64,000 bases of DNA from Escherichia coli (GCF_030013595.1 NZ_CP122768.1); one strand, 5' to 3'. Shown: positions 36,693 to 54,374, counted from the stretch's first letter. Notes: generated by a model not told the origin, from the letters alone. Made by a program: numbers and translations.

Positions 36693-36693
36693 T

Positions 36694-37290
36694 TTACACT
36701 TCCTCCGGATTAGCCAGATAACCAGTGGTATCGCCGGTCGGGCGGCTGTTGGCGTTAGGTTTGATAACGATATTGGGTTTTGTGAAATGCGCGCGCGGTA
36801 GTGGCGCGACGGCAGCCAGAGTGCCGTGCTTCTGGCGCAGCTCTTCAATTGGACCGAACTCAAGTGCACGCAGCGGGCAGGATTCGACACATATGGGTTG
36901 TTTCCCCTCGGCGACGCGCGAATAACAACCATCGCACTTCGTCATGTGTCCTTTTTCAGCATTGTACTGTGGCGCGCCGTACGGACAAGCCATGTGGCAG
37001 TAGCGGCAGCCGATACAAACATCTTCATCAACCACCACAAAGCCATCTTCACGCTTATGCATTGCGCCGCTGGGGCAGACTTTTGTACATGCGGGGTCAT
37101 CGCAATGGTTACAGGAGATGGAGAGATAATAAGCGAACACGTTCTGGTGCCAGACGCCGCCAGCATATTCATAAATACGGCGGAAACTGACTTCCGGGCC
37201 AAGATCTTTAAAATCTTTGCACGCCAGTTCGCAGGTTTTACAGCCAGTACAGCGGCTGGAATCGATAAAAAATCCATATTGTGTGGTCAT
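36694..37290 (-). CDS. ynfG: 4Fe-4S ferredoxin-type electron transfer subunit (DmsB paralogue)
   Basis: Four Cys clusters (CTGCKTCELAC, CNHCDDPAC, CIGCRYCHMAC, CDGC...C). Confidence 0.9.
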   Translation of the reverse strand: MTTQYGFFIDSSRCTGCKTCELACKDFKDLGPEVSFRRIYEYAGGVWHQNVFAYYLSISCNHCDDPACTKVCPSGAMHKREDGFVVVDEDVCIGCRYCHMACPYGAPQYNAEKGHMTKCDGCYSRVAEGKQPICVESCPLRALEFGPIEELRQKHGTLAAVAPLPRAHFTKPNIVIKPNANSRPTGDTTGYLANPEEV

Positions 37291-37300
37291 GGGCTACTCC

Positions 37301-39727
37301 TTAAACCTTTTCGATCTGGACAAGATTGCTGTGCGACGGGTTTCCCTTTGCCAGCGGTGAAGGGCGGTGAGAGGTCAGAATATTGATACTGCCGCCGTGA
37401 TCGACCCGGTCACCAAACATATCCGCTTTAAGCCACGCACCTTGCCCGATGGCGGTAACGCCAGGCAGAATACGCGGAGTCACTTTTGCGGCAATCAGCA
37501 TTTCTCCATTATTGTTAAATACCCGCACGGTATCGCCATGACGGATACCGCGTGCCTGAGCATCAATAGGGTTGATCCACACCTCTTGTGGGCAGGCCTG
37601 CTGTAACACATCAATATTGCCGTAGCTGGAGTGGGTACGCGCTTTGTAGTGGAAGCCCGTTAACTGCAGTGGATAGGTTTTCCGCAGGGGATCGTCCCAG
37701 CCATCAAAACCTGGGGTATACGCAGGAAGGGGATGAATAATTTCATCTTTTTTCAATTCCCAGGTATCCGCAATCGTCGCCAGTCGTTCAGAATAAATTT
37801 CGATTTTCCCCGAAGGTGTTTTCAACGGGTTTGCCTGTGGATCTTCACGGAATGCGCGGAAAGCGACGTAGTGTTCTTCCGGGCATTTTTTCTTAAAGAT
37901 CCCGGTCGTTTTCATCTCCTCGTAGTCGGGCATCTCAGGGTTACGTTCCTTCGTTTTCGCATGGAGATATTTGATCCATTCATGCTGACTGCGACCTTCA
38001 GTAAAGGTTTGATAAACGTCTGGTCCTAAGCGTTTGGCAACTTCACTCAGCATCCAGTAGATGGGTTTGCGTTCAAATTTTGCTGAGGTTGCGGGTTGGG
38101 CGAGGATCACATAGCCCATATTCCCGGCAGATTCGTGAGAGATAAGGTCTTCTTGCTCTGTTGGCATCAGGTCGGGCAACAGGATATCGCAATACTTAGC
38201 CGAGGCAGTCATGAAGTGGTCAATGCCAACAATCATCTCGCACTTGCTGTCATCCTGAAGCACCTCATGGGTGTGATTGATGTCGCCATGTTGATTGATC
38301 AATGTGTTACTGGCGTAGCACCATAAAAACTTGATGGGGACATCCAGTTTTTCTTTTCCACGAACACCATCACGGGTCGCGGTCATTTCCGTACCGTGGT
38401 CGATGGCATCTGTCCATGTAAAGACGGAAATCTGCGTTTTAACAGGATTCTCAAGCATCGGGAACCATTCTACCCCCAGATCCCAGCTACCTTCGCGTAC
38501 ACCTGAGTTGCCGCCGTTTATGCCGACGTTACCGGTGAGAACGGAAAGCATGGCAATAGCGCGGGACGTTTGTTCGCCGTTGGAGTGTCGTTGTGGCCCC
38601 CAACCCTGACAAATATAAGCAGGTTTTGCTGAACCGATCTCTCGTGCCAACTGGATAATTTTTTCTGCCGGGATGCTGGTGATTTTTGCTGCCCATTCCG
38701 GCGTTTTAGCTATGCCGTCAGGCCCTTCGCCCAGAATATAGGCTTTATAATGCGCGTTACGTGGTGCGTTGGCGGGCAGCGTTTTTTCATCGTAACCAAC
38801 ACAATATTTGTCGAGAAATGGCTGATCGACCATGTTTTCAGTAATCAGTACCCAGGCAATCGCACAGGCCAGTGCGCCATCGGTGCCTGGGCGAATTGGC
38901 AGCCATTCATCTTCACGCCCGGCAGCAGTGTCGTTATAACGTGGATCGATGACGATCATGCGTGCGTTTGAACGTTCTCGGGCTTGCTCGACGTAGTAAG
39001 TGACACCACCGCCGCTCATCCGGGTTTCTGCCGGGTTATTTCCGAACATAACGACCAGTTTCGTATTGGCTATATCATCCGGGCTGTTGCCATCATTGGC
39101 ACCGAACATATAACTCATTGCGGCACTGATTTGAGCGGTACTGTAGCTGCCATAGCGACTGAGAAAACCACCGCAAGAGTTCATCAGACGGTACGGGACG
39201 TTCGAGTTGGTGATGTTTCCGCCATCTACGCCTGTTCCGTACAGGACATGTACAGCCTCATTGCCGTAATCTTTAAGGATCCGCCGAAGATTATCACTGA
39301 TGGTATCCAGGGCTTCATCCCAACTTATCCGTTCAAATTTACCTTCACCGCGCTTGCCGACGCGCTTCATGGGATATTTCAACCTGTCAGGATGATTCAT
39401 CCGTCGGCGGATAGAGCGCCCGCGTAAACATGCCCGAACCTGATGATTACCGTAGACGTCGTCACCTGTCGTATCAGACTCCACCCAGTACACGGTGTCA
39501 TCTTTCACATGCAAACGTAACAGACAGCGGCTCCCGCAGTTAACGGTGCAGGAACTCCAGACCGCTTTCTCTTCTACCGGTGTCTCTGCCGCTCGGACCA
39601 TTTGGGAAAATGGCAGAGTGAAAGCACTGCTTGCCAGCGCAAGACTGCCAAGTGCGGAGGTTTTCATCAGACTTCTACGGCTGATTTCAGCCTTCATGAG
39701 CGCCTCTGTGGTATGGATTTTCATCAT
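37301..39727 (-). CDS. ynfF: molybdopterin oxidoreductase catalytic subunit (DmsA paralogue), Tat-exported
   Basis: 808 aa, twin-arginine signal (SRRSLMK), Cys motif CTVNCGSRC. Confidence 0.9.
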   Translation of the reverse strand: MMKIHTTEALMKAEISRRSLMKTSALGSLALASSAFTLPFSQMVRAAETPVEEKAVWSSCTVNCGSRCLLRLHVKDDTVYWVESDTTGDDVYGNHQVRACLRGRSIRRRMNHPDRLKYPMKRVGKRGEGKFERISWDEALDTISDNLRRILKDYGNEAVHVLYGTGVDGGNITNSNVPYRLMNSCGGFLSRYGSYSTAQISAAMSYMFGANDGNSPDDIANTKLVVMFGNNPAETRMSGGGVTYYVEQARERSNARMIVIDPRYNDTAAGREDEWLPIRPGTDGALACAIAWVLITENMVDQPFLDKYCVGYDEKTLPANAPRNAHYKAYILGEGPDGIAKTPEWAAKITSIPAEKIIQLAREIGSAKPAYICQGWGPQRHSNGEQTSRAIAMLSVLTGNVGINGGNSGVREGSWDLGVEWFPMLENPVKTQISVFTWTDAIDHGTEMTATRDGVRGKEKLDVPIKFLWCYASNTLINQHGDINHTHEVLQDDSKCEMIVGIDHFMTASAKYCDILLPDLMPTEQEDLISHESAGNMGYVILAQPATSAKFERKPIYWMLSEVAKRLGPDVYQTFTEGRSQHEWIKYLHAKTKERNPEMPDYEEMKTTGIFKKKCPEEHYVAFRAFREDPQANPLKTPSGKIEIYSERLATIADTWELKKDEIIHPLPAYTPGFDGWDDPLRKTYPLQLTGFHYKARTHSSYGNIDVLQQACPQEVWINPIDAQARGIRHGDTVRVFNNNGEMLIAAKVTPRILPGVTAIGQGAWLKADMFGDRVDHGGSINILTSHRPSPLAKGNPSHSNLVQIEKV

Positions 39728-39784
39728 TACTCACTTATTGCTTTTCAAACAAAATGTCATGCCAGAATTTATGGTTGTAGTGGG

Positions 39785-40811
39785 TTATATTTTTTCGATC
39801 TCGACCAGATTAGTGTGCTGCGGGTTTCCCTTCGCCAGTGGTGAAGGGCGCAGAGTGGTTAGCGTATTCACACAGCCGCCATGGTCGATTTTATCGCCAG
39901 ACATATTGGCCTCGTGCCAGGCTCCCTGGCCCATAGCGCTAACCCCAGGGAGAATGCGTGGTGTTACTTTGGCTGGTAGCCGAACTTCGCCACGATGGTT
40001 AAACACCCGCACCATATCGCCGTTGGCAATCCCACGTTTCTGTGCATCTATAGGGTTGATCCACACCTCCTGACGGCAGGCTTCCTTCAGGACATCAATA
40101 TTGCCGTAGGTCGAGTGGGTACGGGATTTGTAATGGAAACCAAACAGTTGCAGTGGGAAGGTTCTACGTTCAGGGGAGTCCCAGCCTTCAAAGGTTGAGG
40201 CATAAACTGGCAGTGGGCTTATCACTTCATCTTTTTCCAGTTCCCAGGTACGGGCAATTTCCGCCAGCTTGCTGGAATAAATTTCAATCTTACCGGAAGG
40301 CGTTTTAAGTGGATTTGCCTCGGGGTCGTCACGAAATGCTTTGTAGGCGACAAAATGACCATTGGGATCTTTACGCTTATAGATACCCATTTTTTTCAGT
40401 TCGTCGTAAGACGGTAACGCCGGATCTTTGGCAAGCATTTTGGCGTACAGATGTTGTAACCATTGTTCCTGCGTGCGACCTTCTGTGAACTTTTGATAGA
40501 CGTCAGGTCCAAGACGTTTCGCGACTTCACTCAGGATCCAGTAAATCGGTTTGCGTTCGAATTTTTCGCTGGTGACTGGCTGAAGGAAAATGAGATATCC
40601 CATGTTACCTGCGTAGTCGTTAGGAATAATATCTTCCTGCTCAACGGTCATCAGGTCTGGCAGCAGAATGTCGGCATATTTTGCCGATGAGGTCATAAAG
40701 TTTTCGATGACCACAATCATTTCGCATTTCGATTCGTCCTGCAGAATTTCATGCGTTTTGTTGATGTCAGAATGCTGATTAACCAGGGTATTTCCCGCGT
40801 AGTTCCAGATG
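39785..40811 (-). pseudogene. ynfE: ynfE 3' fragment (codons from about IWNYAGNTL to the C-terminus), separated from its 5' part by a 9.4-kb insertion
   Basis: Translation aligns residue-by-residue with the C-terminal half of YnfF; homology begins exactly at the 11-bp repeat 40801-40811; the track ORF 39785..40951 is a chimera with insert-derived N-terminus. Confidence 0.85.
40801..40811 (+). repeat. left copy of 11-bp direct repeat AGTTCCAGATG (att core or target-site duplication)
   Basis: Identical 11-mer at 50242-50252; joining the flanks restores the in-frame ynfE sequence ...VPIKFIWNYAGNTL... Confidence 0.8.
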
Positions 40812-40876
40812 GACTCCACTGTCAGACGGATGGACGGACTTGAAGTAGTTGACTCAACGCTACTTAAGGTCCTGAT

Positions 40877-42485
40877 ATGACTGACATTAACTATGATAAT
40901 ACTGTATATCCATCCAGCTCTTTCTCTGGGTCTCCCTATCTGTATGGGCAAGTCTACACCTCAAGTCCTGACACAAGGCTGACACAAATCAATCTACTCA
41001 GCGTAGCTAAGCCTCAGTTAGTCCGTAGAGCCAATGGTCGATATACTATCCGCTTCAGACTCAAGGGACAGACCACACCGTTTCTTTCAGTATCGACCCG
41101 AAGCACAGACAGGAGAGTAGCCACAATGCGTCAGAGAGAGCTTGCAGCCACAGCTAAGGCCTTCATGTTGGATAGGCCTGAAGTCTCACTACAGGAGCTT
41201 ACAGAGCATCTCCGGTCTATGGCTGAGCAGTTCCTGACAGACGCTAGTGACGATTACTGGAATGGACTTGAGGTCGCTACTTTGGTGGACGAGAAGTCCA
41301 ACCTGAAGGAGCTAGCCGCTACGCAAGCCTTGAGTCTGGACCAGCAGAAGGGCATAAGGTTAGCGCTTGAAGTCCTGACCGCAGCACAGCAGAGGGTAGA
41401 TACTGGTGATACGTCCAGTCTAATCAAGCTGATTGGTGGTGGCGTAAGCCAGCTTACTGATGGAGATGACAATAACCTTACTAATAACTCAACTATATGC
41501 GACTCTACGTTGATTCTGAGGAACGAGCAGGGGGTCAGCCCGCAAGTATTCACGAGAGAGCGCCAACCATCTGTAGTTTTTTCAAGCCTAGTGTCCTCAC
41601 TGCTGGCTGAGAAGGTCCAGACCCTGAAGTCCTCCAGCTACAAGGACCTGTCGTCCTCACTGAATACCGTCTCTCGGTTTCTGCCTGAAGATATGGACCT
41701 GATGTCCCGCTCTGAGTGGCTGGCAGTGAGGGACGCTATGCTGGCTGCTGAGGTGAGACCATCGACAATCAACAAGCTGCTGACCAAAGCGAAGATGTGT
41801 CTCGATTATGGCCTGATGAATGGGCAACTTGAGGGCCGCAACCCTATTGAACGGATGAAGCTGACCAAGGATACCGACTCCAAGCGCAGAGCGTTCACAG
41901 ACGAGGAGCTGGAGAGACTTCTGGTCCGTGTTGAGGCTGAGTATCAGTTCACACGACACACGGCTCACACGACCTCTGAGGCCCGTAGATGGGCGTCTCT
42001 GGTGTCTGTGGTCACTGGCGCGAGGTCTGCTGAGGTCTGCCACCTGACTAAACGTGACGTTGTAACCTTGGACAATGGACTGGTCTGTATCGACATCAAT
42101 GAAGATGGGGACGGGAAGTCTGTGAAGAACAAACATTCAGTCCGACTTGTGCCGTTAACCGATGGGGCCTGTGGTTTCAGCCTGAAGTCCTTCCTCAAAT
42201 GGGTAGACACTCAGCCTGCTGATGGTCCCCTCTTTGGTATGACTCCGAGTGCCTACTCTAGTTGGTTTAACTCTAGGGTCCTGACTGAGGCCCTAGGAGA
42301 CGCTGAGAACGTTTCTCCACAGTCTGAGACATTGGCTGGCGACCCGAATGAAAGAGCGTGGAGTCAATCTGGTGGACGCTCAAGGCATCTTAGGTCACAG
42401 CAGTCAGTCCATTACGTATGACCTGTACGGGAAAGGACACGCTGTTGGTAGGCTGGCTGAGGTGCTGAAGACAGCTTTACTTTAA
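40877..42485 (+). pseudogene. tyrosine recombinase/integrase with apparent 1-nt frameshift upstream of box II
   Basis: ORF 40877-42421 contains box I (VVTGARSAEVCHLTKRDV) but ends out of frame; the HSLRHWLATRM...LGHSSQSITYDLYGKGH catalytic His-Arg-His-Tyr region is in another frame (42297-42485). True start is probably downstream of 40877, since arm-type repeats lie at 40968-40987. Confidence 0.6.
40968..40987 (+). repeat. two 11-bp-spaced direct repeats CTGACACAA (putative integrase arm-type sites, left arm)
   Basis: CTGACACAAGG and CTGACACAAAT in tandem; same motif recurs three times at the right end. Confidence 0.5.
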
Positions 42486-42562
42486 GTAGGAAGACCCAAG
42501 GTGGAGACCATATACGGCTTGATGGTTGAGACCTTGGGTCACTGAAGTCTGACTGAAGTTAG

Positions 42563-42603
42563 GGAGGGTGATAATAATCATAATCCCTCCTGACTATAGG
42601 CCC
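42563..42603 (+). promoter_or_regulatory. hairpin (GGAGGG-16 nt-CCCTCC) followed by T7-class promoter-like motif CTGACTATAGGCCC
   Basis: Direct reading of sequence; TATAGG core shared with motifs at 42801-43474. Confidence 0.35.
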
Positions 42604-42644
42604 ACTGGTTCGCCTTCGGCTGTCCGACTCTAAGTCTGTCTGTG

Positions 42645-42776
42645 GTCTTATTTAAACTGGTTCCCTAACTCAGGTCCTCCAACTTGGTGTCTTATTTAAA
42701 CTGGTTCCCTAACTCAGGTCCTCCAACTTGGTGTCTTATTTAAACTGGTTCCCTAACTCAGGCCCCTCCAAATTTC
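42645..42776 (+). repeat. three tandem copies of a 44-bp repeat (GTCTTATTTAAACTGGTTCCCTAACTCAGGTCCTCCAACTTGGT)
   Basis: Units start at 42645, 42689 and 42733; first two identical, third diverges in its last 14 nt. Confidence 0.85.
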
Positions 42777-42800
42777 GTTGTCTGTCAGCGACTTAAATAT

Positions 42801-42855
42801 CCCCTCACCTTAGAAGAGTTTAGGGTTCAGACCCTTAACTATCACCTTAGGAGAG
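42801..42855 (+). promoter_or_regulatory. pair of single-subunit phage RNAP promoter-like motifs (CCCCTCACCTTAGAAGAG and AACTATCACCTTAGGAGAG)
   Basis: Resemble SP6/T3-class promoters (…CACTATAGAAGAG / …CCCTCACTAAAGGGAGA); located just upstream of the 166-aa ORF. Confidence 0.35.
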
Positions 42856-42901
42856 ACGGGCCGTCCTCCACCCAATCAAAACCTTAAGAGGAGGACCATA
42901 C

Positions 42902-43402
42902 ATGGCTATTAAAATTCAGTGCTACACCGAGTCCGACAATGCGGCTTTCTTCGGTGACGATTCCGACCTCCAGCACCAGCTACCAGCACCGACATATGAC
43001 GAACCTAAGGCCCGCACAGGTAAGCCTCCTGTGGTCATCGACAACCGGGCTGTCCGTGCGTGGCTGATTGAGACTGGGTGTCTCTCCTATACGCAGCTTG
43101 TTGAGGCGTACCCGTGGGCTGACGATGTGTTCACAGGACTCTCACGGGCTACCAGTGGCGCTGTCGGTGCTGGACTCCCGGTATCTAAGGCGTACCTGTT
43201 CTCTGCCTTATATGGCACCAACGACATCTTCTCCCGTAACACAGCCAAATCCTACGCTGACATCACTGGGCGTTCACCGTCTCCTCGCTACCTGCGCCAC
43301 GTCAATAGCGTGCTTCAGGCTACGGCTGTGAATCTGGCTAAGGTTCTGAAGGACCGAGGGGATTTCACATGGTGGGATTACAACGATCAGTGCCTGTCCT
43401 GA
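42902..43402 (+). CDS. hypothetical protein (166 aa)
   Basis: ORF with GAGGAGG Shine-Dalgarno 8 nt upstream; no recognisable motifs. Confidence 0.55.
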   Translation: MAIKIQCYTESDNAAFFGDDSDLQHQLPAPTYDEPKARTGKPPVVIDNRAVRAWLIETGCLSYTQLVEAYPWADDVFTGLSRATSGAVGAGLPVSKAYLFSALYGTNDIFSRNTAKSYADITGRSPSPRYLRHVNSVLQATAVNLAKVLKDRGDFTWWDYNDQCLS

Positions 43403-43426
43403 GAGCCGCGCCAGCTCTGGGCTGGA

Positions 43427-43474
43427 ATACCCCCTCACTATAGGGACACCCCCTAAACTATCACTATAGGGGGG
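43427..43474 (+). promoter_or_regulatory. pair of T3/T7-class promoter-like motifs (CCCCCTCACTATAGGGACA and AACTATCACTATAGGGGGGA)
   Basis: First motif matches the T3 promoter core CCCTCACTAAAGGGA at 14 of 15 positions and the T7 core TCACTATAGGGA exactly; no RNAP gene in the element. Confidence 0.45.
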
Positions 43475-43620
43475 ACCAACCTTGCCTCTGCTTCTGATGC
43501 GTCAGAACACGCGAGGTCCTCCCGACATTAAGTATTCTCCTAAGTAATCAAGGCCCGTGACCGCCTCTGACAGACCTCCTGTATCGACCTCCAGCTCGTT
43601 AGCGTTCTTTAGTCGTCTCG

Positions 43621-43628
43621 GTTAGTAG
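43621..43628 (+). repeat. 8-bp target-site duplication GTTAGTAG (left) of IS66-family copy 1
   Basis: Identical octamer at 46329-46336 immediately outside the IS ends. Confidence 0.8.
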
Positions 43629-43712
43629 GTAACCGGCTCATTTAAACCGTCTGGTCTGTTTCCTCCGGCTCTACAAAAATAATGTCCATCATTTTTTAAT
43701 GGACACTATCGT

Positions 43713-44360
43713 ATGAAACACCGGACCTGGATCACTGAAGCTTTACGTCTTCACTTTGAAGAACATTTACCCCGGGTTGTGGCCGGGCGTCGCCTGGGTG
43801 TACCAAAATCAACAGTTTGTAGTATGTTCGTGCGCTTTCGGAGAGCTGGCCTTTCGTGGCCTTTGCCCGCAGGCATGTCGGAGCAGGAACTTGATGCCTG
43901 CCTTTACGGACAATTTTCCACGGTACCAGTCGTACGTCCTGAAAGCACCGTTATATCCGAAGCCCCCGTGGTAAAAAAACGTCCCCGGCGGCCCAACTTC
44001 CCTTATGAGTTTAAAATCGCCTTAGTGGAGCAGTCACTGCAGCCCGGAGCCTGTGTGGCGCAGATCGCCCGGGAAAACGGAATCAACGATAACCTGCTCT
44101 TCAACTGGCGCCATCAATACCGGAAAGGTGGCCTGCTGCCTTCCGGAAAAAATATGCCGGCACTGCTTCCCGTGACGTTAACGCCGGAGCCGGATAATAA
44201 AATCCCGGCCCCCGCACAGGAACCAGAGCAGATAAATACACCGTCCGACAGTCTGTGTTGTGAGCTGGTTCTGCCGGCCGGAACTCTCAGGCTTAAAGGT
44301 AAACTGACGCCGGCGTTATTACAGACACTTATCCGCGAAATAAAAGGGAGCAGCCACTGA
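43713..44360 (+). CDS. IS66-family accessory protein (orf1, HTH)
   Basis: 215 aa first ORF of the IS. Confidence 0.8.
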   Translation: MKHRTWITEALRLHFEEHLPRVVAGRRLGVPKSTVCSMFVRFRRAGLSWPLPAGMSEQELDACLYGQFSTVPVVRPESTVISEAPVVKKRPRRPNFPYEFKIALVEQSLQPGACVAQIARENGINDNLLFNWRHQYRKGGLLPSGKNMPALLPVTLTPEPDNKIPAPAQEPEQINTPSDSLCCELVLPAGTLRLKGKLTPALLQTLIREIKGSSH

Positions 44361-44707
44361 TGATATCTCTCCCTGCAGGTTCGCGTATCTGGCTGGTTGC
44401 AGGTATCACCGATATGCGAAATGGCTTTAACGGCCTGGCATCAAAAGTTCAGAACGTCCTGAAGGATGACCCGTTCTCCGGACACCTGTTCATCTTCCGC
44501 GGACGCCGGGGTGACCAGATAAAAGTGTTGTGGGCTGACAGTGACGGACTGTGCCTCTTCACCAAACGCCTGGAGCGGGGCCGCTTCGTCTGGCCAGTCA
44601 CCCGTGACGGCAAGGTGCACCTTACTCCGGCTCAGTTATCCATGCTTCTTGAAGGTATCAACTGGAAGCACCCGAAACGAACGGAACGCGCTGGAATCCG
44701 CATATAA
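44360..44707 (+). CDS. IS66-family Orf2 (TnpB-like)
   Basis: 115 aa MISLPAGSRIWLVAGITDMRNGFNGLA..., typical IS66 orf2; start overlaps orf1 stop. Confidence 0.85.
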   Translation: MISLPAGSRIWLVAGITDMRNGFNGLASKVQNVLKDDPFSGHLFIFRGRRGDQIKVLWADSDGLCLFTKRLERGRFVWPVTRDGKVHLTPAQLSMLLEGINWKHPKRTERAGIRI

Positions 44708-44726
44708 CCCGTTGTAAAGTGAGGAT

Positions 44727-46298
44727 ATGGACACCTCACTTGCTCATGAGAACGCCCGCCTGCGGGCACTGTTGCAGACGCAACAGGACACCATCCGCCA
44801 GATGGCTGAATACAACCGCCTGCTCTCACAGCGGGTGGCGGCTTATGCTTCCGAAATCAACCGGCTGAAGGCGCTGGTTGCGAAACTGCAACGTATGCAG
44901 TTCGGTAAAAGCTCAGAAAAACTTCGTGCAAAAACCGAACGGCAGATACAGGAAGCACAGGAGCGAATCAGCGCACTTCAGGAAGAAATGGCGGAAACGC
45001 TGGGTGAGCAATATGACCCGGTACTGCCATCCGCCCTGCGCCAGTCTTCAGCCCGTAAACCGTTACCGGCCTCACTTCCCCGTGAAACCCGGGTTATCCG
45101 GCCGGAAGAGGAATGCTGTCCTGCCTGTGGTGGTGAACTCAGTTCTCTGGGATGTGATGTGTCAGAGCAACTGGAGCTTATCAGCAGCGCCTTTAAGGTT
45201 ATCGAAACACAACGTCCGAAACAGGCCTGTTGCCGGTGCGACCATATCGTACAGGCACCAGTACCTTCAAAACCCATTGCACGCAGTTATGCCGGAGCGG
45301 GGCTTCTGGCCCATGTTGTCACCGGGAAATATGCAGACCATCTGCCGTTATACCGCCAGTCAGAAATATACCGTCGTCAGGGAGTGGAGCTGAGCCGTGC
45401 CACACTGGGGCGCTGGACAGGTGCTGTTGCTGAACTGCTGGAGCCGCTGTATGACGTCCTGCGCCAGTATGTGCTGATGCCCGGTAAAGTCCATGCTGAT
45501 GATATCCCCGTCCCGGTCCAGGAGCCGGGCAGCGGTAAAACCCGGACAGCCCGGCTGTGGGTCTACGTCCGTGATGACCGTAACGCCGGTTCACAGATGC
45601 CCCCGGCGGTCTGGTTCGCGTACAGTCCGGACCGGAAAGGTATCCATCCACAAAATCACCTGGCCGGTTACAGCGGTGTGCTTCAGGCCGATGCTTACGG
45701 TGGTTACCGGGCGTTATACGAATCCGGCAGAATAACGGAAGCCGCGTGTATGGCTCATGCCCGGAGAAAAATCCACGATGTGCATGCAAGAGCGCCCACC
45801 TACATCACCACGGAAGCCCTGCAGCGTATCGGTGAACTGTATGCCATCGAGGCAGAGGTCCGGGGCTGTTCAGCAGAACAGCGTCTGGCGGCAAGAAAAG
45901 CCAGAGCCGCGCCACTGATGCAGTCACTGTATGACTGGATACAGCAACAGATGAAAACACTGTCGCGTCACTCAGATACGGCAAAAGCGTTCGCATACCT
46001 GCTGAAACAGTGGGATGCACTGAACGTGTACTGCAGTAATGGCTGGGTGGAAATCGACAACAACATCGCAGAGAACGCCTTACGGGGAGTGGCCGTAGGC
46101 CGGAAAAACTGGATGTTCGCGGGTTCCGACAGCGGTGGTGAACATGCGGCGGTGTTGTACTCGCTGATCGGCACATGCCGTCTGAACAATGTGGAGCCAG
46201 AAAAGTGGCTGCGTTACGTCATTGAACATATCCAGGACTGGCCGGCAAACCGGGTACGCGATCTGTTGCCCTGGAAAGTTGATCTGAGCTCTCAGTAA
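44727..46298 (+). CDS. IS66-family transposase (orf3)
   Basis: 523 aa with N-terminal leucine-zipper-like region, CxxC...CxxC zinc finger and DDE region. Confidence 0.85.
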
Positions 46299-46328
46299 AT
46301 ATCAATACGGTTCTGACGAGTCGCTTAC

Positions 46329-46336
46329 GTTAGTAG
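46329..46336 (+). repeat. 8-bp target-site duplication GTTAGTAG (right) of IS66-family copy 1
   Basis: Matches 43621-43628. Confidence 0.8.
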
Positions 46337-46582
46337 CTCGTCTACTCACTACATTGGCTTAAGTCTATCACCGCTCACCATCTGGAGTCCTTACAGCTCG
46401 TCCTGACATGCGGTCTCACCTTATATGCACATGGAGAACATGGCCACTCCAGACCAACACTAATCAACATTAACCCTATTCACTTTCGTTAAGCATTTTT
46501 TGGTGGGTCCGTTTGGATGCATTGAATAGGTGCGGACTCCACGTGGAGACAGAAAGTGCTTTACTAAAGGAGCATCCTTTAT

Positions 46583-46972
46583 ATGACTATTAAATCCATC
46601 GTTATCAACGGTAAGACCATCCTGTCTACACCTAACGCCATCAATGAGGGTGTCTGGTTCGACATGCTTGAGGTCCATCAAGCTGCTGGCTTGCCTGCTA
46701 ACAAGACGTTCTCACAGTGGCGCAGCCGACAGTCTCGTGCATTAGAAGAGGCTGGAGAGGTGTCGTTTGACAGTGTACAGAAGACCCTGTGTGGCAGCTT
46801 TGTGGCAGTGCTGGCCTACCTTATGTGGGCGGACCTTACTCTCTGGCTGGCGGTGGTTCGTTACGTTGCGTCTGAGACTATCGGCGTCCTGCCTGACCGC
46901 TTCAAGTCTATCGACGGTGATAACCCCGAGTTAGAAATGTCAGAGGATAACAGCGAGTGGGAGGACTTCTAA
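46583..46972 (+). CDS. KilA-N domain protein (129 aa)
   Basis: N-terminal pattern (INGKTI...NEGVWFDMLEV...GLPANKTFSQW) and hydrophobic WxxxLxxxL segment typical of KilA-N/APSES DNA-binding domains. Confidence 0.5.
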   Translation: MTIKSIVINGKTILSTPNAINEGVWFDMLEVHQAAGLPANKTFSQWRSRQSRALEEAGEVSFDSVQKTLCGSFVAVLAYLMWADLTLWLAVVRYVASETIGVLPDRFKSIDGDNPELEMSEDNSEWEDF

Positions 46973-46973
46973 G

Positions 46974-47714
46974 ATGACCATGAGCCAGCTTGAAGCATTA
47001 CCTATCGTCATCGAGGGTCATTCATTCATCTGCAACGACCAGCGCATGTGGAACCTGAACGAGATTCACCGAGTGTTAGGTCTTCCAGCAAGCAAGATGC
47101 CGTCTGAGTGGAATAACAAGATTCGCACACAACTTGACCGCTCCGGAAATTTCCGGACCGTGAATGGTGACGGCGGTGGTACATGGGCGACCGAGGCTGG
47201 GACCGTGGCTTATGCTATGTGGGTCTCTACAGATTTCTACCTGATGGTCATCAATGCTTTCATCTTTATGCGTAACGACGCAATCGTCCGAGAGCGTGTA
47301 GCGGTCAAACAGGCTGACGAGGCTAACGCTAACCTCTCCATCGCAGCACCTAAGGCAGACATCTTTGACGGTCGTCTGACCAATGGTGGCTCTGTTCCGT
47401 GGAACTGGGCGTGTAAATCTTTGGGTCTTGCCCCGATGAAACTGAAAGAGGGCTTGAAGCGCTCCGGTAAGTTCGTCCAGAAGTGGAACCCTGACAGTTA
47501 CGCCGACGAGCTTCGACCTCAGGAGAAGGCGTTCAGTATTGGACTATTCGTCACTAAGTCAGTCATGGGTAAAGACACATGGCAGGTGACAGCTAAAGGC
47601 TACGCATGGATGCAGGGGAACGCCCAGAAGTGGAGAGAGCTAATAGCTGATGGTGACCGCTTAAAGGCTGCTGAGCGTCGAGCACAGAAGCGTCTTAACC
47701 GTGGAGGTAAGTAG
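46974..47714 (+). CDS. KilA-N domain protein with C-terminal extension (246 aa)
   Basis: Paralogous to upstream ORF (IEGHSFICNDQRMWNLNEIHRVLGLPASKMPSEW... GTWATEAGTVAYAMWVSTDFYLMV). Confidence 0.5.
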   Translation: MTMSQLEALPIVIEGHSFICNDQRMWNLNEIHRVLGLPASKMPSEWNNKIRTQLDRSGNFRTVNGDGGGTWATEAGTVAYAMWVSTDFYLMVINAFIFMRNDAIVRERVAVKQADEANANLSIAAPKADIFDGRLTNGGSVPWNWACKSLGLAPMKLKEGLKRSGKFVQKWNPDSYADELRPQEKAFSIGLFVTKSVMGKDTWQVTAKGYAWMQGNAQKWRELIADGDRLKAAERRAQKRLNRGGK

Positions 47715-47716
47715 TC

Positions 47717-47941
47717 ATGGCTATGATTGACCCTCGTACACCTATCGGCAAAGCGACCCTTCGTTACCGTGGTCTGCCTACACGTCATCTGCTGTCCCTG
47801 CTGAGACTTGGAGTCGAAGACCCCGAACGCCCGTACTACAGTCGAGACGAGCTAATAGCTATGTTGGTGGACCGTGATTTAGACAATCAGTTACGCCGAG
47901 CCTTTGCGAAGTCTAGCGCAGCTAGGGAACTGGAGTCCTGA
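47717..47941 (+). CDS. hypothetical protein (74 aa)
   Basis: ORF tightly coupled to upstream gene (3-nt gap). Confidence 0.4.
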   Translation: MAMIDPRTPIGKATLRYRGLPTRHLLSLLRLGVEDPERPYYSRDELIAMLVDRDLDNQLRRAFAKSSAARELES

Positions 47942-48146
47942 ACCTTATGGGGCAGAAAAACCGCCGCATAAACCTATCGTCTGCTGACCGAAGTTTCGAC
48001 GCATTGAGCCAGACGGAAAAGTTTTCCTGCTGGTAAACCACCTTAATTTAAACACCTTTTGAGAATGACCGATGCGGGGAGACCCGTAGGCATAACTGTG
48101 TCTGCGATACCGATAGTTCTCACCTTCTCAATAGGAGTACTACCTT

Positions 48147-48638
48147 ATGTTATTCAACAACAACGACTGGAAACTATCAGTCACCGACATCAATCCCTAT
48201 GAAAATACTGTGAGTCTGGACGGTCAGTCCTATCCGCTGTCTCTGGCGATTAAGACCCTGATTCCGGGCTACCTGTCAGGCTTACCGTCCACCAGCCGCG
48301 AGGCGATGGAGTTACTGGAAGCTCTGGCTGAAGCTGGCGTGTCCATTGGCAACTTCTTCAGTAATGACCTGATGACCGCCTATGGTCGCCGCCAGCAGAA
48401 CAAGCGAGCCGAAGCTGAGCGTATTGCTAAAGAGCAGCGCATTCAGGCTGAGCGTATGCGTGAAGAGAACATGACTGATGCAGAGTGGCAGAAAGAGCTA
48501 CAGCGCCGTGAACAGGTCAAAGCTGAACGCCGGACCTATGGTGAGCACCTCCGCAGTGCTACCCATTCCGCTGGGCGCTCCCGTGCTTCTATGGTCGCTG
48601 ACATTGAGTCCACGGACAACTGGATGGACAGCCTCTAA
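48147..48638 (+). CDS. hypothetical coiled-coil protein (163 aa)
   Basis: C-terminal half highly charged and heptad-like (RRQQNKRAEAERIAKEQRIQAERMREENMTDAEWQKELQRREQVKAERR). Confidence 0.5.
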   Translation: MLFNNNDWKLSVTDINPYENTVSLDGQSYPLSLAIKTLIPGYLSGLPSTSREAMELLEALAEAGVSIGNFFSNDLMTAYGRRQQNKRAEAERIAKEQRIQAERMREENMTDAEWQKELQRREQVKAERRTYGEHLRSATHSAGRSRASMVADIESTDNWMDSL

Positions 48639-48704
48639 GACACAGACACACAAGTGGTCCTGACCTGATGTCGGGACCCACAGTATCCAAACTAATTTAG
48701 GAGA

Positions 48705-49700
48705 TTGATTATTATGACGATTAAAGACGCTTTCCAGTTCGGCATTGAGCCAGTACGTATCAGCGACACCGACAACATTCAGATTAACGAAGGTTTGCCA
48801 ACTAACGCAGACCCGCAGGTCTATGCCCTCCAGTTAGCTAAGACGGTTAAGGCTATGCTGAACGGTGTACTTAAAGACGCTCAAGAGAACATCCCGTTCC
48901 CTGTAGAAGTCCTGCCGACCCGCAATAGCCTGCCTACTCCAATCATTGCTCACACTCTGGCTGATCGCTCTGTGGTCGTTCCTGTCCGTGGTGGTAAGCG
49001 ACCTGAAGTCGTGACCGTTCCGTCTGGACAAGAAATCGTGGTCGAACCAATCGAGCAGGCTATTCTCATCTCTGAGCAGACCAAGCTCTGGGACGCCAAG
49101 TCATCCACCGGATTCACTCAGGGCACACTTCAGCAGGACGCTATGAACATCTGTGAGAATGTGGTCCGTACCATCAACGCTCGCATGGTCGACGTTCTGG
49201 AGTCCTCCAAACTGTTGAAGACCGTAGAGCTGCCAGTCCTGACTGGAAGCCTGACCACTAAGGCAGACGCTATCATGGACGCTCTGTTTGAGAACACCGA
49301 GTCCTCTTTCGGCTCTGAAGTGTCTGATTACGGCATCATCGCCCATGAGTCCCAACTGAAAGCGCTGTCCCGTCTGGCAGCTAAACAGGGCTTCTCTGGT
49401 GGAGACGCTATCGTGGATATGCTGGGTACCGACATCGCCTATTACAACGGTGAAGACAAGGGTGTATTCATGCTGGCTAAACGCTTCACGGCCCTGAGCT
49501 TCGGCTGCTTCCGTCACGACGGTGAGAATATTACGGTCGTCCTTTCACGTGATGGCGACTCTCAGTCCCACGACTTGGAAATCCTCGGTAAAGTGTTCGT
49601 TGTCGCTGAAGCTGCTACGACCATCAAGATGGGCACTGGCTCAGCTACTGCCGTCCTGCCTGTAGTCAAACGCCTGAAGTTCACCAAGACCGAAGCGTAA
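48705..49700 (+). CDS. hypothetical protein (331 aa), possible structural/morphogenetic protein
   Basis: Largest non-integrase ORF of the element; follows the coiled-coil ORF; AGGAG Shine-Dalgarno upstream; no motif I can assign. Confidence 0.5.
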   Translation: MIIMTIKDAFQFGIEPVRISDTDNIQINEGLPTNADPQVYALQLAKTVKAMLNGVLKDAQENIPFPVEVLPTRNSLPTPIIAHTLADRSVVVPVRGGKRPEVVTVPSGQEIVVEPIEQAILISEQTKLWDAKSSTGFTQGTLQQDAMNICENVVRTINARMVDVLESSKLLKTVELPVLTGSLTTKADAIMDALFENTESSFGSEVSDYGIIAHESQLKALSRLAAKQGFSGGDAIVDMLGTDIAYYNGEDKGVFMLAKRFTALSFGCFRHDGENITVVLSRDGDSQSHDLEILGKVFVVAEAATTIKMGTGSATAVLPVVKRLKFTKTEA

Positions 49701-49844
49701 GACCAATGGGTAAGAGGTAAGTCTGGACTGAATATCAGCAGGACTTCAGGTGGTGGCCTGTCACTGTGATTAACTAACTACGGTCTGGACCAATGGTCTG
49801 GGCCTTATTACTGGTATGGTAGTATACAGGCGAAGGAGGACCCA

Positions 49845-50000
49845 ATGTCTATGACTTCCGCAGACCTAAGGTCCCTCCTGACTCTGGTCTATAAACTCGT
49901 GTTCCTCTCTGTGGGTCTCTACATGGTTCTCTCTGGTCGACTCGGTGTGGATGTGTTCGACACTCTGTCTAAGGCTGTGGGTGGACTTCTAGGTCCTTAG
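49845..50000 (+). CDS. small single-pass membrane protein (51 aa)
   Basis: ATG with AGGAGGA Shine-Dalgarno; MSMTSADLRSLLTLVYKLVFLSVGLYMVLSGRLGVDVFDTLSKAVGGLLGP; below ORF-track cutoff. Confidence 0.4.
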   Translation: MSMTSADLRSLLTLVYKLVFLSVGLYMVLSGRLGVDVFDTLSKAVGGLLGP

Positions 50001-50153
50001 GTTTGGACTCACAGTGGGACCGATGATTTCTGACAGAAAAATGTGAATGACCATCTAATACATTAAGCCAGCAGACTTCCCCCCATAGTCCCGCCTCAAG
50101 TCCAGACCGAGGCCACCGGGGGTCCTGACCAGCCGTCTAGACATCCCGTCTAA

Positions 50154-50186
50154 TGACACAAGTCTGGCACAAAGCCTGACACAAAG
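50154..50186 (+). repeat. three 11-bp-spaced direct repeats TGACACAAG / TGGCACAAAG / TGACACAAAG (putative arm-type sites, right arm)
   Basis: Same motif and orientation as 40968-40987 at the opposite end of the element. Confidence 0.5.
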
Positions 50187-50241
50187 TCCTTGACTCAATG
50201 CAGGACCTCAGGCCTACTAAGGGTCCGCTTCAAGTCCTTGA

Positions 50242-50252
50242 AGTTCCAGATG
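50242..50252 (+). repeat. right copy of 11-bp direct repeat AGTTCCAGATG
   Basis: Identical to 40801-40811. Confidence 0.8.
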
Positions 50253-51652
50253 AACTTAATGGGCACATCCAGTTTATCTTTGCCGCGGACGCCGTCGCGG
50301 ATTGCCGTCATTTGCGGGCCATGATCGATAGCATCCGTCCAGCTGAAGCAGGAGATTGACGTTTTGACCGGATTATCCAGCACCGGTAGGCGTTCTATGG
50401 TAATGGTATAGGTCGATTCACGCGCGCCACTATTCCCGCCGCTGATGCCGACATTGCCCGTCAAAATAGGCAACATAGCAATAGCGCGTGCGGTCAGCTC
50501 ACCGTTTGCCTGGCGTTGCGGCCCCCAGCCCTGGCAGATATAAGCGGGTTTTGCTGTGCCAATTTCACGCGCCAGTTTGATGATACGGTCCACCGGGATA
50601 CCGGTAATTTGCGAAGCCCACTGCGGCGTTTTCGCTGTTTTATCGTCACCTTCACCAAGAATATAGGCTTTATAGTGACCATTTTTTGGTGCATCTGCGG
50701 GTAAGGTTTTTTCGTCATAGCCGACGCAGTATTTATCAAGAAAAGGTTGATCAACGAGATTTTCGTTAATCAATACCCAGGCAATACCCGCAACCAGCGC
50801 GGCATCGGTGCCCGGGCGAATAGGAAGCCATTCGTCTTCACGACCGGCAGCCGTATCGGTATATCGCGGATCGATAACAATCATTTTTGCGTTCGATTTC
50901 TCGCGCGCTTTTTCAAGAAGATAAGTGATGCCACCACCGCTCATGCGGGTTTCTGCCGGGTTGTTACCAAACATCACGACCAGCTTGCTGTTTTCAATAT
51001 CCGTGGTGCTGTTGCCATCATTACTGCCGTAGGTGTAGGGCATGGCACAGGAAATTTGCGCGGTGCTGTAGGAGCCATACTGGTTGAGTGAGCCGCCGTA
51101 GCAGTTCATCAGGCGTTTGACCGCCGAGGCGGATGGCGAAGAGCGGGTCATATTGCCGCCAACAATCCCCGAAGAGTACTGAATATATACAGCCTCATTG
51201 TCATATTGTTCGACGGTTTTTTTCAGGCTACTGGCGATAGTATCCAGGGCTTCATCCCAGCTAATCCGTTCGAATTTGCCTTCGCCGCGTTTGCCCACGC
51301 GTTTCATTGGGTAATTCAAGCGGTCGGGATGATTAATACGCCGACGGATGGAGCGACCGCGCAAACAGGCGCGTACTTGATGATTGCCATACTCATCGCT
51401 GCCGGTGTTGTCAGTTTCCACCCAGGTCACTTCATTATCTTTAACATGCAGACGAAGTGCACAGCGGCTACCACAGTTGACGGAACAGGCACCCCAGACC
51501 ACTTTCTCGCTGGCCTGTTGTACTGCTGCCGCTGCACTGCGCAGGGTGAACGGTAAAGAAAAACCGCCTGCAGCCAGCGCCAGAGAACCTATCGCGGTAG
51601 ATTTAACGAGTGTTCTGCGGCTGATGCCCACCATTTGTTCATTTTTGGACAT
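50242..51652 (-). pseudogene. ynfE: ynfE 5' fragment (Tat signal and N-terminal about 465 codons)
   Basis: MSKNEQMVGISRRTLVKSTAIGSLALAAGG twin-arginine leader; homology to YnfF ends at ...LDVPIKFIWN where the insert begins. Confidence 0.85.
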
Positions 51653-51751
51653 AACTCACTCCCTGTTCTTTATCGTTATATAAAAGTTTATATATTGAAT
51701 ATTTAGCGCGCTAACAATAGAGGGAGTCTACCTATTTTGGGTTAAGAATTA

Positions 51752-51765
51752 TTAATCCATATCAA
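51752..51765. promoter_or_regulatory. FNR-like site TTAAT-CCAT-ATCAA upstream of ynfE
   Basis: 9 of 10 match to TTGAT-N4-ATCAA, about 107 bp upstream of the ynfE ATG; the ynfEFGH-dmsD operon is known to be anaerobically induced. Confidence 0.35.
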
Positions 51766-51850
51766 TAGAAGGGTATGAGTAATAAAGTGGGATTATGTTG
51801 TATGTTCAAATCGCCGGATGTGTCGTATCCGGCGTGCTGTCGATAATGTG

Positions 51851-52156
51851 TTACTGCGGTTCGGCAGGCGCGCCATCCTGGGTAGACTGCGCGGGAGCAG
51901 AGACGTTACCGCTGGTGGTGCGGGTGTAGAGAATTTTATGCGTATCATTAGCGCAATGCCCGACGACCTGGGAATCAGGCTGATCAACCTGGTCATTGGG
52001 TACAATACTTAACGTGAAGCTGCTTTCGGGAACGCCATTATTGATAATGCGCTGTGATATATCGCTCTGTATGCGCTCACAGGATCCCGGCGCGGCGAGT
52101 ACCGCGGGTGAGGCGAGGGCGAGCAGAAGCGCGGCACAGCAGGTTGAGAGTTTCAT
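51851..52156 (-). CDS. ynfD: DUF1161 periplasmic protein YnfD
   Basis: Start MKLSTCCAALLLALASPAVLA (signal peptide), 101 aa. Confidence 0.8.
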   Translation of the reverse strand: MKLSTCCAALLLALASPAVLAAPGSCERIQSDISQRIINNGVPESSFTLSIVPNDQVDQPDSQVVGHCANDTHKILYTRTTSGNVSAPAQSTQDGAPAEPQ

Positions 52157-52263
52157 CATAAGCTCCTTACGCGAAGATAACTTCTTTAAGCATAGCATTT
52201 AACGTGTAAAGTACTGTATTTGCTACTATGATTGAGAATCATCTCTACTCTCTGGTGACTGTT

Positions 52264-52974
52264 GTGAAATACAAATTACTGCCATGCTTACTCGCGATAT
52301 TCCTCACAGGATGTGACCGCACAGAGGTAACACTTTCATTTACCCCTGAGATGGCCAGTTTCTCTAATGAATTCGATTTTGATCCGCTGCGTGGTCCGGT
52401 AAAAGATTTCACTCAGACATTAATGGATGAGCAAGGTGAAGTGACGAAACGTGTTTCTGGGACTTTGTCGGAAGAAGGCTGTTTTGATTCACTCGAATTA
52501 CTGGATCTGGAAAATAATACCGTGGTCGCTCTGGTACTGGACGCCAATTATTACCGTGATGCCGAGACGCTGGAGAAGAGAGTACGTTTACAGGGAAAAT
52601 GCCAGCTAGCAGAATTACCTTCTGCCGGGGTGAGTTGGGAAACCGATGATAATGGCTTCGTGATTAAAGCCAGCAGCAAACAGATGCAGATGGAATATCG
52701 CTATGATGATCAGGGGTATCCGCTGGGTAAAACCACGAAAAGTAACGACAAAACATTATCTGTCAGCGCCACGCCATCAACGGATCCGATCAAAAAATTA
52801 GATTACACAGCGGTTACTTTACTGAATAATCAACGGGTTGGTAATGTAAAACAGAGCTGTGAATATGACAGTCACGCCAATCCGGTGGACTGTCAGCTAA
52901 TCATTGTTGATGAAGGAGTAAAACCCGCCGTCGAACGGATTTACACCATCAAAAATACTATCGATTATTATTAA
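52264..52974 (+). CDS. ynfC: UPF0257 lipoprotein YnfC
   Basis: GTG start giving MKYKLLPCLLAIFLTGC lipobox; 236 aa. Confidence 0.75.
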   Translation: MKYKLLPCLLAIFLTGCDRTEVTLSFTPEMASFSNEFDFDPLRGPVKDFTQTLMDEQGEVTKRVSGTLSEEGCFDSLELLDLENNTVVALVLDANYYRDAETLEKRVRLQGKCQLAELPSAGVSWETDDNGFVIKASSKQMQMEYRYDDQGYPLGKTTKSNDKTLSVSATPSTDPIKKLDYTAVTLLNNQRVGNVKQSCEYDSHANPVDCQLIIVDEGVKPAVERIYTIKNTIDYY

Positions 52975-52976
52975 TG

Positions 52977-53537
52977 CTATTGTGCGGTCGGCTTCAGGAG
53001 AGTCTGACCCGGTGTTTTGTGCTCTGCCAGATACTGATGCTGGAATATACACATGCGAATAGCATTACGATATTGACCATTAATAAAAAACTCATGCATC
53101 AATTCACCTTCAACCGTAAAGCCAAGCTTGCGGTAAATGTGAATCGCTTTTTCATTCTCTTTATCAACGATCAGATACAGCTTATAGAGATTGAGAACGG
53201 TGAAGCCATAGTCCATTGCTAATTTGGCGGCACGGGTTGCCAGACCTTTCCCTTGATACTCCGGGGAGATAATTATCTGAAATTCTGCGCGGCGATGAAC
53301 ATGGTTAATTTCCACCAGCTCCACCAGACCGGCTTTTTCGCCGTCACATTCCACCACAAAGCGCCGTTCGCTCTGATCGTGAATATGCTTATCGTACAGA
53401 TCAGAGAGTTCAACAAAGGCTTCGTAGGGTTCCTCAAACCAGTAACGCATCACACTGGCGTTATTGTCGAGTTGATGTACATAGCGTAAATCTTCACGCT
53501 CCAGCGGGCGTAGCTTAACACTGTGGGCGCTTGGCAT
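52977..53537 (-). CDS. speG: spermidine N1-acetyltransferase
   Basis: 186 aa GNAT protein, [39 protein letters not shown]. Confidence 0.9.
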
Positions 53538-53571
53538 AACGTGTCCTTACATTCCTTAAATCAATAACAGG

Positions 53572-53913
53572 TTAGGGGGTAATAACGCGGCCAGTTCGAC
53601 GGTCCAGGCAGCGCAAAGTATTTGGCTCCCAGTAGGCATTGATGTTGGCGCTTTGCTCACATTTATCGCGGTTATCAAAAGCGGCGTCGGCTTTATCCCA
53701 CTCTTTTTCAGTGCGTTTATTCACTTTCTGGCGCAGATTGCGCGTGTCATTCCATTGCTCTTTTTCCATAGCGGCGTGCTGGCGGCTTTGTGCACTGTCG
53801 CCAGACTCAATCACCAGTTTGTTAGTTTCGGCATGAACAGTTGTGCTCAATGCCAGTGCGCAAGGCAGCAGAAAAGCGAGCAGGCCAATTCGTTTGCTGA
53901 GAGTAATTTTCAT
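53572..53913 (-). CDS. ynfB: UPF0482 secreted protein YnfB
   Basis: 113 aa with signal peptide; K-12 synteny. Confidence 0.8.
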
Positions 53914-54047
53914 AATTCATTCCCTGTATGAATGATTAAAGGTGATTCTACACCATCCACTGCGAACGCAAAACGTACCAGGAGGATGTTTATATTGATG
54001 ATATTATGTCGTCCTATAACTATACATGATGTCAATAAGTGACAAAG

Positions 54048-54374
54048 ATGATTAAAACAACGTTACTATTTTTTGCTACTGCGCTGTGTGAAATTATTGG
54101 ATGCTTTCTGCCCTGGTTGTGGTTAAAACGAAACGCCAGTATCTGGCTGTTACTTCCGACGGGGATTTCTCTGGCACTGTTTGTCTGGTTGTTAACGTTG
54201 CATCCTGCGGCGAGTGGGCGTGTTTACGCGGCTTATGGTGGCGTTTATGTCTGCACGGCGTTGATGTGGCTGCGCGTTGTGGATGGCGTGAAACTGAGTC
54301 TTTATGACTGGACGGGGGCATTGATTGCGCTTTGCGGCATGTTGATCATTGTTGCGGGCTGGGGGCGCGCGTAA
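54048..54374 (+). CDS. ynfA: UPF0060 membrane protein YnfA
   Basis: Start [26 protein letters not shown]; 108 aa, four TM. Confidence 0.8.

Follow-up and report, generated by a model that had tools for sequence, protein, structure and literature searches.

In a 64,000-nt stretch of Escherichia coli DNA (hereafter the window, with coordinates counted from its first letter), we found ynfE to be split by a 9,426-bp insertion (40816-50241) that comprises an integrative island of about 6.7 kb and a 2.7-kb copy of the insertion sequence (IS) ISCro1. In the window, the ynf operon is read from the minus strand. After weighing our sequence comparisons against the published data, we consider it probable that a site-specific element integrated in ynfE and then decayed, and that the operon would since have depended on weak promoters; a polar effect on the distal genes and a selenate/dimethyl sulfoxide (DMSO) phenotype would be the expected consequences. 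A sequence-only reading of this DNA had proposed that ynfE is inactivated and that ynfFGH-dmsD is separated from its promoter. Both proposals were borne out: the gene is broken within the Molybdopterin domain and is not restored, and 9.4 kb of DNA, with all of its genes facing the opposite way, stand between ynfFGH-dmsD and the FNR-dependent promoter of ynfE. Beyond that reading, we found that the insert is a recurrent, site-specific element that has been published before, that its integrase is frameshifted, that 2.7 of the 9.4 kb are a secondary ISCro1, and that it carries a gene for a capsid-like protein.

We propose the following course of events. The attP core of the element (AGTTCCAGATGrACT) recombined with the identical sequence inside ynfE, so that the gene for the catalytic subunit was split in its Molybdopterin domain at codons 466-471, which the element family targets in E. 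coli and related enterobacteria. Decay came later, when the integrase lost its catalytic residues through slippage by 2 bp in a (TC)n run and ISCro1 entered an intergenic spacer. The intact FNR promoter would still drive synthesis of a truncated YnfE(1-471) fragment bearing the Tat signal. Further downstream, the transcript would run untranslated and antisense across the island and be terminated through Rho-dependent polarity, which would leave ynfF-ynfG-ynfH-dmsD reliant on weak internal or adventitious promoters.

The insertion in ynfE and its recurrence

When the ynf region of E. coli K-12 was compared with the window, 34302-40815 and 50242-56721 aligned at 98.1-98.2% identity, and the two segments overlapped by 15 bp of K-12 sequence, which places the insertion (40816-50241, given on the plus strand) at ynfE nucleotides 1397-1411. 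This position corresponds to codons 466-471 of 808, inside the Molybdopterin domain, and the gene is not restored by the element. Both sides of the insert carry a direct repeat of 15 bp, AGTTCCAGATG(G/A)ACT, of which the attL core copy (AGTTCCAGATGGACT) forms the left border at 40801-40815 and the attR core copy (AGTTCCAGATGAACT) forms the right border at 50242-50256, within the overlap of the K-12 segments. The core occurs as a single copy in K-12 and in the empty-site genome of E. coli HCP5S3_I2. The G at 40812 of the attL copy is missing from both empty-site sequences and presumably derives from the attP of the element.

The insertion leaves two ynfE fragments. The 5′ fragment (50195-51652, minus strand) encodes 485 aa, namely YnfE residues 1-471, which are 98.7% identical to K-12 YnfE (tblastn), followed by 14 island-coded codons and a stop. 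It retains the Tat (twin-arginine) signal, the Fe4S4 motif (Molybdop_Fe4S4) and positions 1-225 of the Molybdopterin profile, that is, its first two-thirds (Pfam). The 3′ fragment (39785-40815) forms part of a chimeric open reading frame (ORF) of 388 aa (39785-40951, minus strand), in which a TTG start and 45 island-coded codons precede YnfE residues from about 465 to 808, with Molybdopterin positions 259-353 and the Molydop_binding domain (Pfam). The domains of YnfE are thus distributed over two ORFs 9.4 kb apart, and YnfE cannot be made as a single polypeptide. All predicted genes of the island and of ISCro1 are on the plus strand, antisense to ynf.

The same interruption is widespread. Using junction-spanning queries of 300 nt against 5,426 complete E. 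coli genomes, we found the two junctions in 148 and 151 genomes (about 3%), and the remaining genomes, more than 5,000, have an uninterrupted ynfE site. Both ynfE halves are labeled as pseudogenes by the Prokaryotic Genome Annotation Pipeline (PGAP) in the island-bearing relatives. These strains carry differing ynfE backgrounds, with a synonymous divergence (dS) from K-12 of 0 in some and 0.05-0.07 in others, and identical codons are targeted in hosts with a ynfE of just 77-85% identity (loci L010 and L022). A divergent relative (L013), whose capsid-like protein is only 44% identical and whose integrase is 86% identical, also leaves a 486-aa ynfE 5′ fragment, and another relative (L012) is found at the same locus. 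Therefore, the shared codons and the varied backgrounds indicate that a dedicated clade of integrases has integrated here independently many times. An integrase near one end, an att core equal to the uninterrupted target and the repeated independent use of one site together identify the insert as an integrative element.

The disruption of ynfE at this site is already catalogued and is not new. In the passages concerned with ynfE, Mageeney et al. 2020 (TIGER; NAR 48:4052; PMC7192596) report the gene as the target of an integrative element, and the supplement lists Eco892.7.ynfE and Sfl13.8.ynfE as disruptions of the Molybdopterin domain. As far as these passages describe them, the TIGER elements resemble ours in being tyrosine-integrase islands of 7-8 kb that recur in E. 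coli and Shigella and that disrupt the Molybdopterin domain without restoring it; neither the main text nor those passages of the supplement discuss which genes the island carries. The loss of ynfE is itself of little import: YnfE is a non-essential selenate/tellurate reductase paralogue, and the configuration has been published and can be seen in the annotation of about 150 public E. coli genomes.

The nearest genome in our collection is that of HCP5S3_I2 (pig, UK; NZ_CM149870.1, 2551000-2590000), which is 99.9% identical to the window over positions 1-20000; its sibling LCP30S3_I5 matches this region equally well. HCP5S3_I2 has the empty site and an intact ynfE, and it lacks the island, a deletion in ynfG and a second ISCro1 that are present in the window. 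It differs from the window by 4 single-nucleotide polymorphisms (SNPs) in 9.6 kb of the left flank and by 4 in 7.6 kb of the right flank (about 0.5 SNP per kb), with the difference at 40812 counted among them. Therefore, both the insertion and the subsequent decay are recent. Three of the four right-flank SNPs (51428, 51686 and 51838) fall within 410 bp that cover the ynfE 5′ end, its 5′ untranslated region and the sequence upstream; this clustering could reflect relaxed constraint or be due to chance (P~0.1 as a rough value corrected for scanning).

Expected consequences for the ynf operon

The ynfEFGH-dmsD operon is directly activated by FNR through a site at -40.5 (Myers et al. 2013; PMC3688515), and the FNR-type site identified by pattern match in the promoter region upstream of ynfE, TTGATatggATTAA (51752-51765, minus strand), matches this published site and is intact. 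The only documented promoter of the distal genes is now 9.4 kb away from them. The ynfE frame stops at 50195, and beyond this point no minus-strand ORF continues it, the longest across the 9.4 kb being 159 aa. Rho-dependent polarity is expected when a long untranslated stretch parts a promoter from its distal genes. Since the frame stops at 50195 and the antisense island RNA is essentially untranslated, we infer that the promoter-driven expression of ynfF-dmsD would be lost. On balance, a substantial polar effect on ynfFGH is somewhat more probable than its absence, and for dmsD such an effect appears evenly balanced. The configuration resembles that of known Rho-dependent polar insertions of IS elements or prophages, in which translation stops prematurely and a long antisense stretch without translation then separates the promoter from the distal genes. 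It differs in that the polarity is here deduced from the sequence and in that published data hint at binding sites for RNA polymerase within the operon.

The distal genes themselves are well preserved. As full-length ORFs, ynfF (37301-39724, 2 substitutions in 807 residues relative to K-12), ynfH (35838-36692) and dmsD (35181-35795), all on the minus strand, are intact, and their protein identity to K-12 is 97.9-99.8%. In ynfG (36694-37290, minus strand), a 21-bp in-frame deletion at 37155 removes 7 residues between Cys groups, and the protein is otherwise identical to that of K-12. The deletion is bounded by short direct repeats (TGCCAGnCGCC). We considered it as a sign of operon decay and rejected this reading because the deletion is present in 4 of the 5,426 complete genomes and 3 of those have an intact ynfE.

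Several points weigh against a polar effect. No expression data were found in the published literature for any island-bearing strain. In the uropathogenic E. coli strain EC958, transcripts of ynfF are far more abundant than those of ynfE, and loss of dmsA affects the two in different ways (PMC12096835). A sigma-54 site that was detected by chromatin immunoprecipitation (ChIP; Bonocora et al. 2015; PMC4591121) lies in ynfH at a distance of 50 bp upstream of dmsD; its motif, TAGGAATGGCTATTGCA, is present as an exact copy in the window (35844-35860, minus strand), and this site may be an independent route to dmsD expression. A peak for the sigma-28 holoenzyme was found within ynfG by systematic evolution of ligands by exponential enrichment (PMC5493296). 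Additionally, the distal genes are intact, within the stretches fetched, in seven island-bearing E. coli loci, of which five were covered for all four genes, one (L002) for ynfF and ynfG, and one (L001) for ynfF-ynfH. These genes could be still expressed and under selection, or the insertions could merely be young. Finally, the ratio of nonsynonymous to synonymous divergence (dN/dS) of the ynfE halves is 0.04-0.15, as low as in intact alleles, and this lack of a decay signal is attributed to the youth of the insertion. As a test, the comparison of dN/dS between the ynfE halves and ynfF was uninformative because the ratio is low in island-bearing and intact strains alike. Transcriptome and transcription start site papers on Shigella flexneri were no more informative, since one was without ynf data and dmsD of M90T was listed only among pseudogenes.

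The alternative that deserves most weight is that ynfF-ynfG-ynfH and/or dmsD are served by internal promoters, so that no meaningful polarity arises and the loss of YnfE is the only consequence of the insertion. We regard this alternative as possible and rather unlikely. The published internal RNA polymerase sites and the expression of ynfF uncoupled from ynfE hint that the silencing of ynfF-dmsD is not complete. The physiology of DmsD points in the same direction, as the maturation of DmsABC requires DmsD (PMC12096835) and a silenced dmsD would cost about 3% of E. coli their DMSO respiration. However, K-12 RNA-seq data were judged consistent with a position of ynfF inside a multi-gene operon (PMC4666370), and the FNR ChIP and expression data handle ynfEFGH-dmsD as one unit (PMC3688515). 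Intragenic sigma-54 and sigma-28 sites are, moreover, often transcriptionally silent. Our consensus scans for promoters and terminators in 34800-42000 and 40800-51900 gave counts at or below the shuffled expectation, with no promoter-like site above chance between the island and ynfF; such scans are evidence neither for nor against internal promoters.

Published work also bears on the function of the enzymes concerned. Deletion of ynfEF abolishes selenate reduction in E. coli (PMC12724226), and in Salmonella YnfE is the main selenate enzyme, with a small contribution of YnfF (PMC5203670). The window strain and HCP5S3_I2 or LCP30S3_I5 form a natural near-isogenic pair that makes polarity testable, including the dependence of dmsD and DMSO respiration on the ynfE promoter.

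State of the window copy

The integrase gene of the window copy (40877-42421, plus strand) starts 62 nt from attL and is a pseudogene. It belongs to the tyrosine integrases and matches the integrase profile phrog_1 (E 6e-24; PHROGs), but 2 bp are missing from a (TC)n run at about 42317, which shifts the frame and removes the HSLRH...H...Y catalytic motifs (HxxR, H and Tyr). Intact integrases of 453-528 aa (L001, L004 and L017) continue past this point as '...NVSLHSLRHWLA...GHSSQSITYDLYGKGH', whereas the window reads out of frame and then meets a stop. Correspondingly, the Pfam score is 19.1 bits in the window (cut-off 27.1) compared with 51.4 bits for the intact L001 copy. With the catalytic residues lost, the window element is degenerate and predicted to be unable to excise itself, so that the loss of YnfE would be permanent.

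The copy has also been enlarged by ISCro1, a member of the IS66 family with tnpA, tnpB and tnpC, which occupies 43629-46328 (plus strand). We located it by comparison with the IS-free island of L001, in an intergenic part of the island of about 6.7 kb. Its proteins carry the Pfam domains HTH_Tnp_1, TnpB_IS66 and DDE_Tnp_IS66, its ends begin with GTAA and are imperfectly inverted, and it is flanked by an 8-bp target duplication, GTTAGTAG. With three ORFs in 2,700 bp, its 8-bp duplication and 99.85% identity to ISCro1 copies named by PGAP, it is an ordinary copy.

These features bear on a second alternative, in which the island acts as a reversible switch whose excision restores ynfE and reconnects the operon to its promoter. 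Mageeney et al. 2020 (PMC7192596) proposed such 'regulated gene integrity' in general terms, and the relevant passages list the ynfE elements among the candidates. Both ynfE halves in the window are free of further frameshifts and stops, precise excision would rebuild the 808-aa ORF, and many relatives have an intact integrase of 453-528 aa. However, the intact halves are explained by the young age of the insertion (about 0.5 SNP per kb relative to the empty-site strain). The window copy lacks a functional recombinase and its HxxR...H...Y motifs and is enlarged by 40% through the IS, and no excisionase was recognized in the island. No attP or empty-site evidence and no excised form was present among the public contigs inspected. 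Public contigs of about 6.5-7.3 kb, the size of the island, were examined as candidate excised circles and rejected: they proved to be pieces spanning a junction or, next to a tRNA gene, a related element. At 9.4 kb with a frameshifted integrase, the window copy differs from the TIGER ynfE elements such that reversible regulation is inapplicable to it, and we consider a switch very unlikely.

The sequence-only reading had given the coordinates of the chimeric ORF (39785-40951) correctly, but its suggestion that this ORF could express a Tat-less C-terminal YnfE fragment, and with it a functional or interfering role for such a fragment, can practically be set aside: nothing supports its expression apart from the ORF itself and a GAGGTG 5 nt upstream of its TTG start, the start lies antisense inside the integrase coding region with no minus-strand promoter-like site upstream, the sole promoter match on the minus strand there (40489-40462, 9/12) falls inside the ORF itself and is no more than chance would give, a fragment without the Tat signal, the Fe4S4 motif and Molybdopterin positions 1-258 (about 60% of the domain) cannot bind cofactor or be exported, and PGAP calls the ynfE 3′ fragment a pseudogene remnant in all relatives. 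The likelier product, absent from that reading, is the N-terminal YnfE(1-471) fragment, whose gene keeps the promoter, the ribosome-binding site and the Tat signal.

A second ISCro1 (57802-60501) lies between rspB and a Rac-like prophage integrase, in inverted orientation relative to the island copy; it is 99.85% identical to the reference copies and has an 8-bp duplication. Recombination between the two copies could invert 11.5 kb that include the ynfE 5′ half, its promoter and ynfD-rspB. No such inversion has happened, because the target duplications of both copies still match. Directly after the second ISCro1, a Rac/Qin-like prophage end (60502-63812) carries an integrase, an excisionase and an exonuclease, as judged by homology to L005 and to HCP5S3_I2.

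The island family and its relation to known elements

Apart from the integrase and ISCro1, the island encodes a small set of proteins, all on the plus strand. Among them is orf331 (48705-49700), near attR, which is predicted to be an HK97-fold capsid/encapsulin-like protein. A full HMMER scan found 63 relatives, down to 24% identity, and AlphaFold2 modeling with the alignment of these 63 relatives gave a predicted local distance difference test score of 85.3 and a predicted template modeling score of 0.80, with an HK97 fold in the predicted structure. Directly upstream of the capsid-like gene, as in all relatives, is orf163 (48147-48638), which encodes a charged coiled-coil protein; its position and its composition, which is that of a scaffolding protein, suggest a scaffold-like role. 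The pair is preceded by orf129, a KilA-N-like paralogue, and the gene for a DNA-binding protein of the KilA-N/ANT type with 246 aa (together 46583-47714; Pfam, PHROGs and mutual blastp), followed by a conserved small core ORF of 74 aa (47717-47941) that is 59-61% identical to 63-aa ORFs of L009 and L012. A variable-region gene without a family match, orf166 (42902-43402), lies closer to the integrase. No sequence match was found for orf129, orf163, orf166 or orf331 in PADLOC, NCBIfam, Pfam or PHROGs, and with the same four resources none of the island ORFs was recognized as a gene for a portal, terminase, protease, tail or replication protein.

Two sets of repeats accompany these genes. Downstream of the integrase, a 44-nt unit is repeated in tandem in three copies (42645-42776, plus strand; family D1), of which two are identical and one is 80% identical; these repeats could be iterons or binding sites, and the region differs in the L001 variant. 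Near both ends of the island, CTGACACAA-type repeats (40962-40988, plus strand, and 50147-50185; family D4) would come to lie on either side of the core once attP is formed in the circle, and they are candidate arm-type integrase sites. An Rfam scan of 34000-61000 gave no match.

The island belongs to a conserved family of integrative elements of 5-7 kb with a five-gene core, represented by L009, L012, L014, L015 and L019-L022. Divergent relatives keep the order of integrase, variable gene, KilA-N-type or other DNA-binding protein, ORF of 63-74 aa, scaffold-like gene and capsid-like gene. Three integrase clades use different sites, namely ynfE, the 3′ end of a tRNA gene (L009) and another chromosomal locus (L014), and on these comparisons one island lineage is evidently specialized on the site inside ynfE. 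The middle of the island is modular: some variants have an AP2-domain protein in place of orf129 and the KilA-N gene, or carry a DUF4145 protein (L004, 25753-26844; L009, 1765-2418). Different island copies have been entered, in independent events, by IS100, ISEc12 and ISCro1.

Searches outside the family returned few relatives. The right half of the island had no match among phage genomes and only one distant match on a plasmid, an Enterobacter plasmid with a copy of the scaffold and capsid pair. Matches in IMG/VR have isolate-style identifiers, include ynfE/ynfF or other chromosomal flanks and look like predicted prophage regions; we rejected them as evidence of encapsidation on these grounds.

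We speculate, with considerable reserve, that the island stands for a family of minimal mobile elements of Enterobacteriaceae that encode a capsid and have not been described before, either as a satellite or as a mobile compartment. By analogy with Ccm and the capsid-forming phage-inducible chromosomal islands (cf-PICIs), a phage satellite is conceivable, with a small capsid that the element builds or resizes itself and with portal, packaging and tail borrowed from a helper. Alternatively, it could be a mobile encapsulin-like compartment. Encapsulin systems consist of a shell gene and an adjacent cargo enzyme with a targeting peptide, and they are not mobile. If either reading holds, as satellite or as mobile nanocompartment, the island would add to the minimal HK97-based elements now known, and would do so in a host that has been studied thoroughly.

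Among the nearest published kinds are satellite-encoded HK97-fold capsid proteins, namely the cf-PICI major head protein (PDB 9gyi) and Ccm of SaPIbov5 (PDB 7rwz). However, cf-PICIs have their own portal, protease, head-tail connectors and TerS, none of which was recognized in the island of about 6.7 kb, so that it cannot be counted among them. Likewise, the Staphylococcus aureus pathogenicity islands (SaPIs) carry rep/pri and terS, and neither was recognized here. Classical PICI, SaPI and P4-like elements are defined by alpA or another regulator, a primase-replicase with an ori, and excision and packaging induced by a helper phage. In comparison with them, the island has no recognizable primase or rep, and a KilA-N/ANT-type regulator is present. 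Another published group, the temperate tailless 'mini viral entities' from human gut metagenomes, averages 8.9 kb (bioRxiv 10.1101/2025.06.18.659913). Compared by description only, these entities encode RepA, helicase/primosomal proteins, sigma factors and quorum-sensing proteins, whereas the island family, at 5-7 kb and in Enterobacteriaceae, has KilA-N regulators and no recognizable replication gene. Like the island, the mini viral entities are smaller than 10 kb and do without portal, terminase and tail, and the two share an integrase, a scaffold and an HK97-fold capsid protein close to encapsulins.

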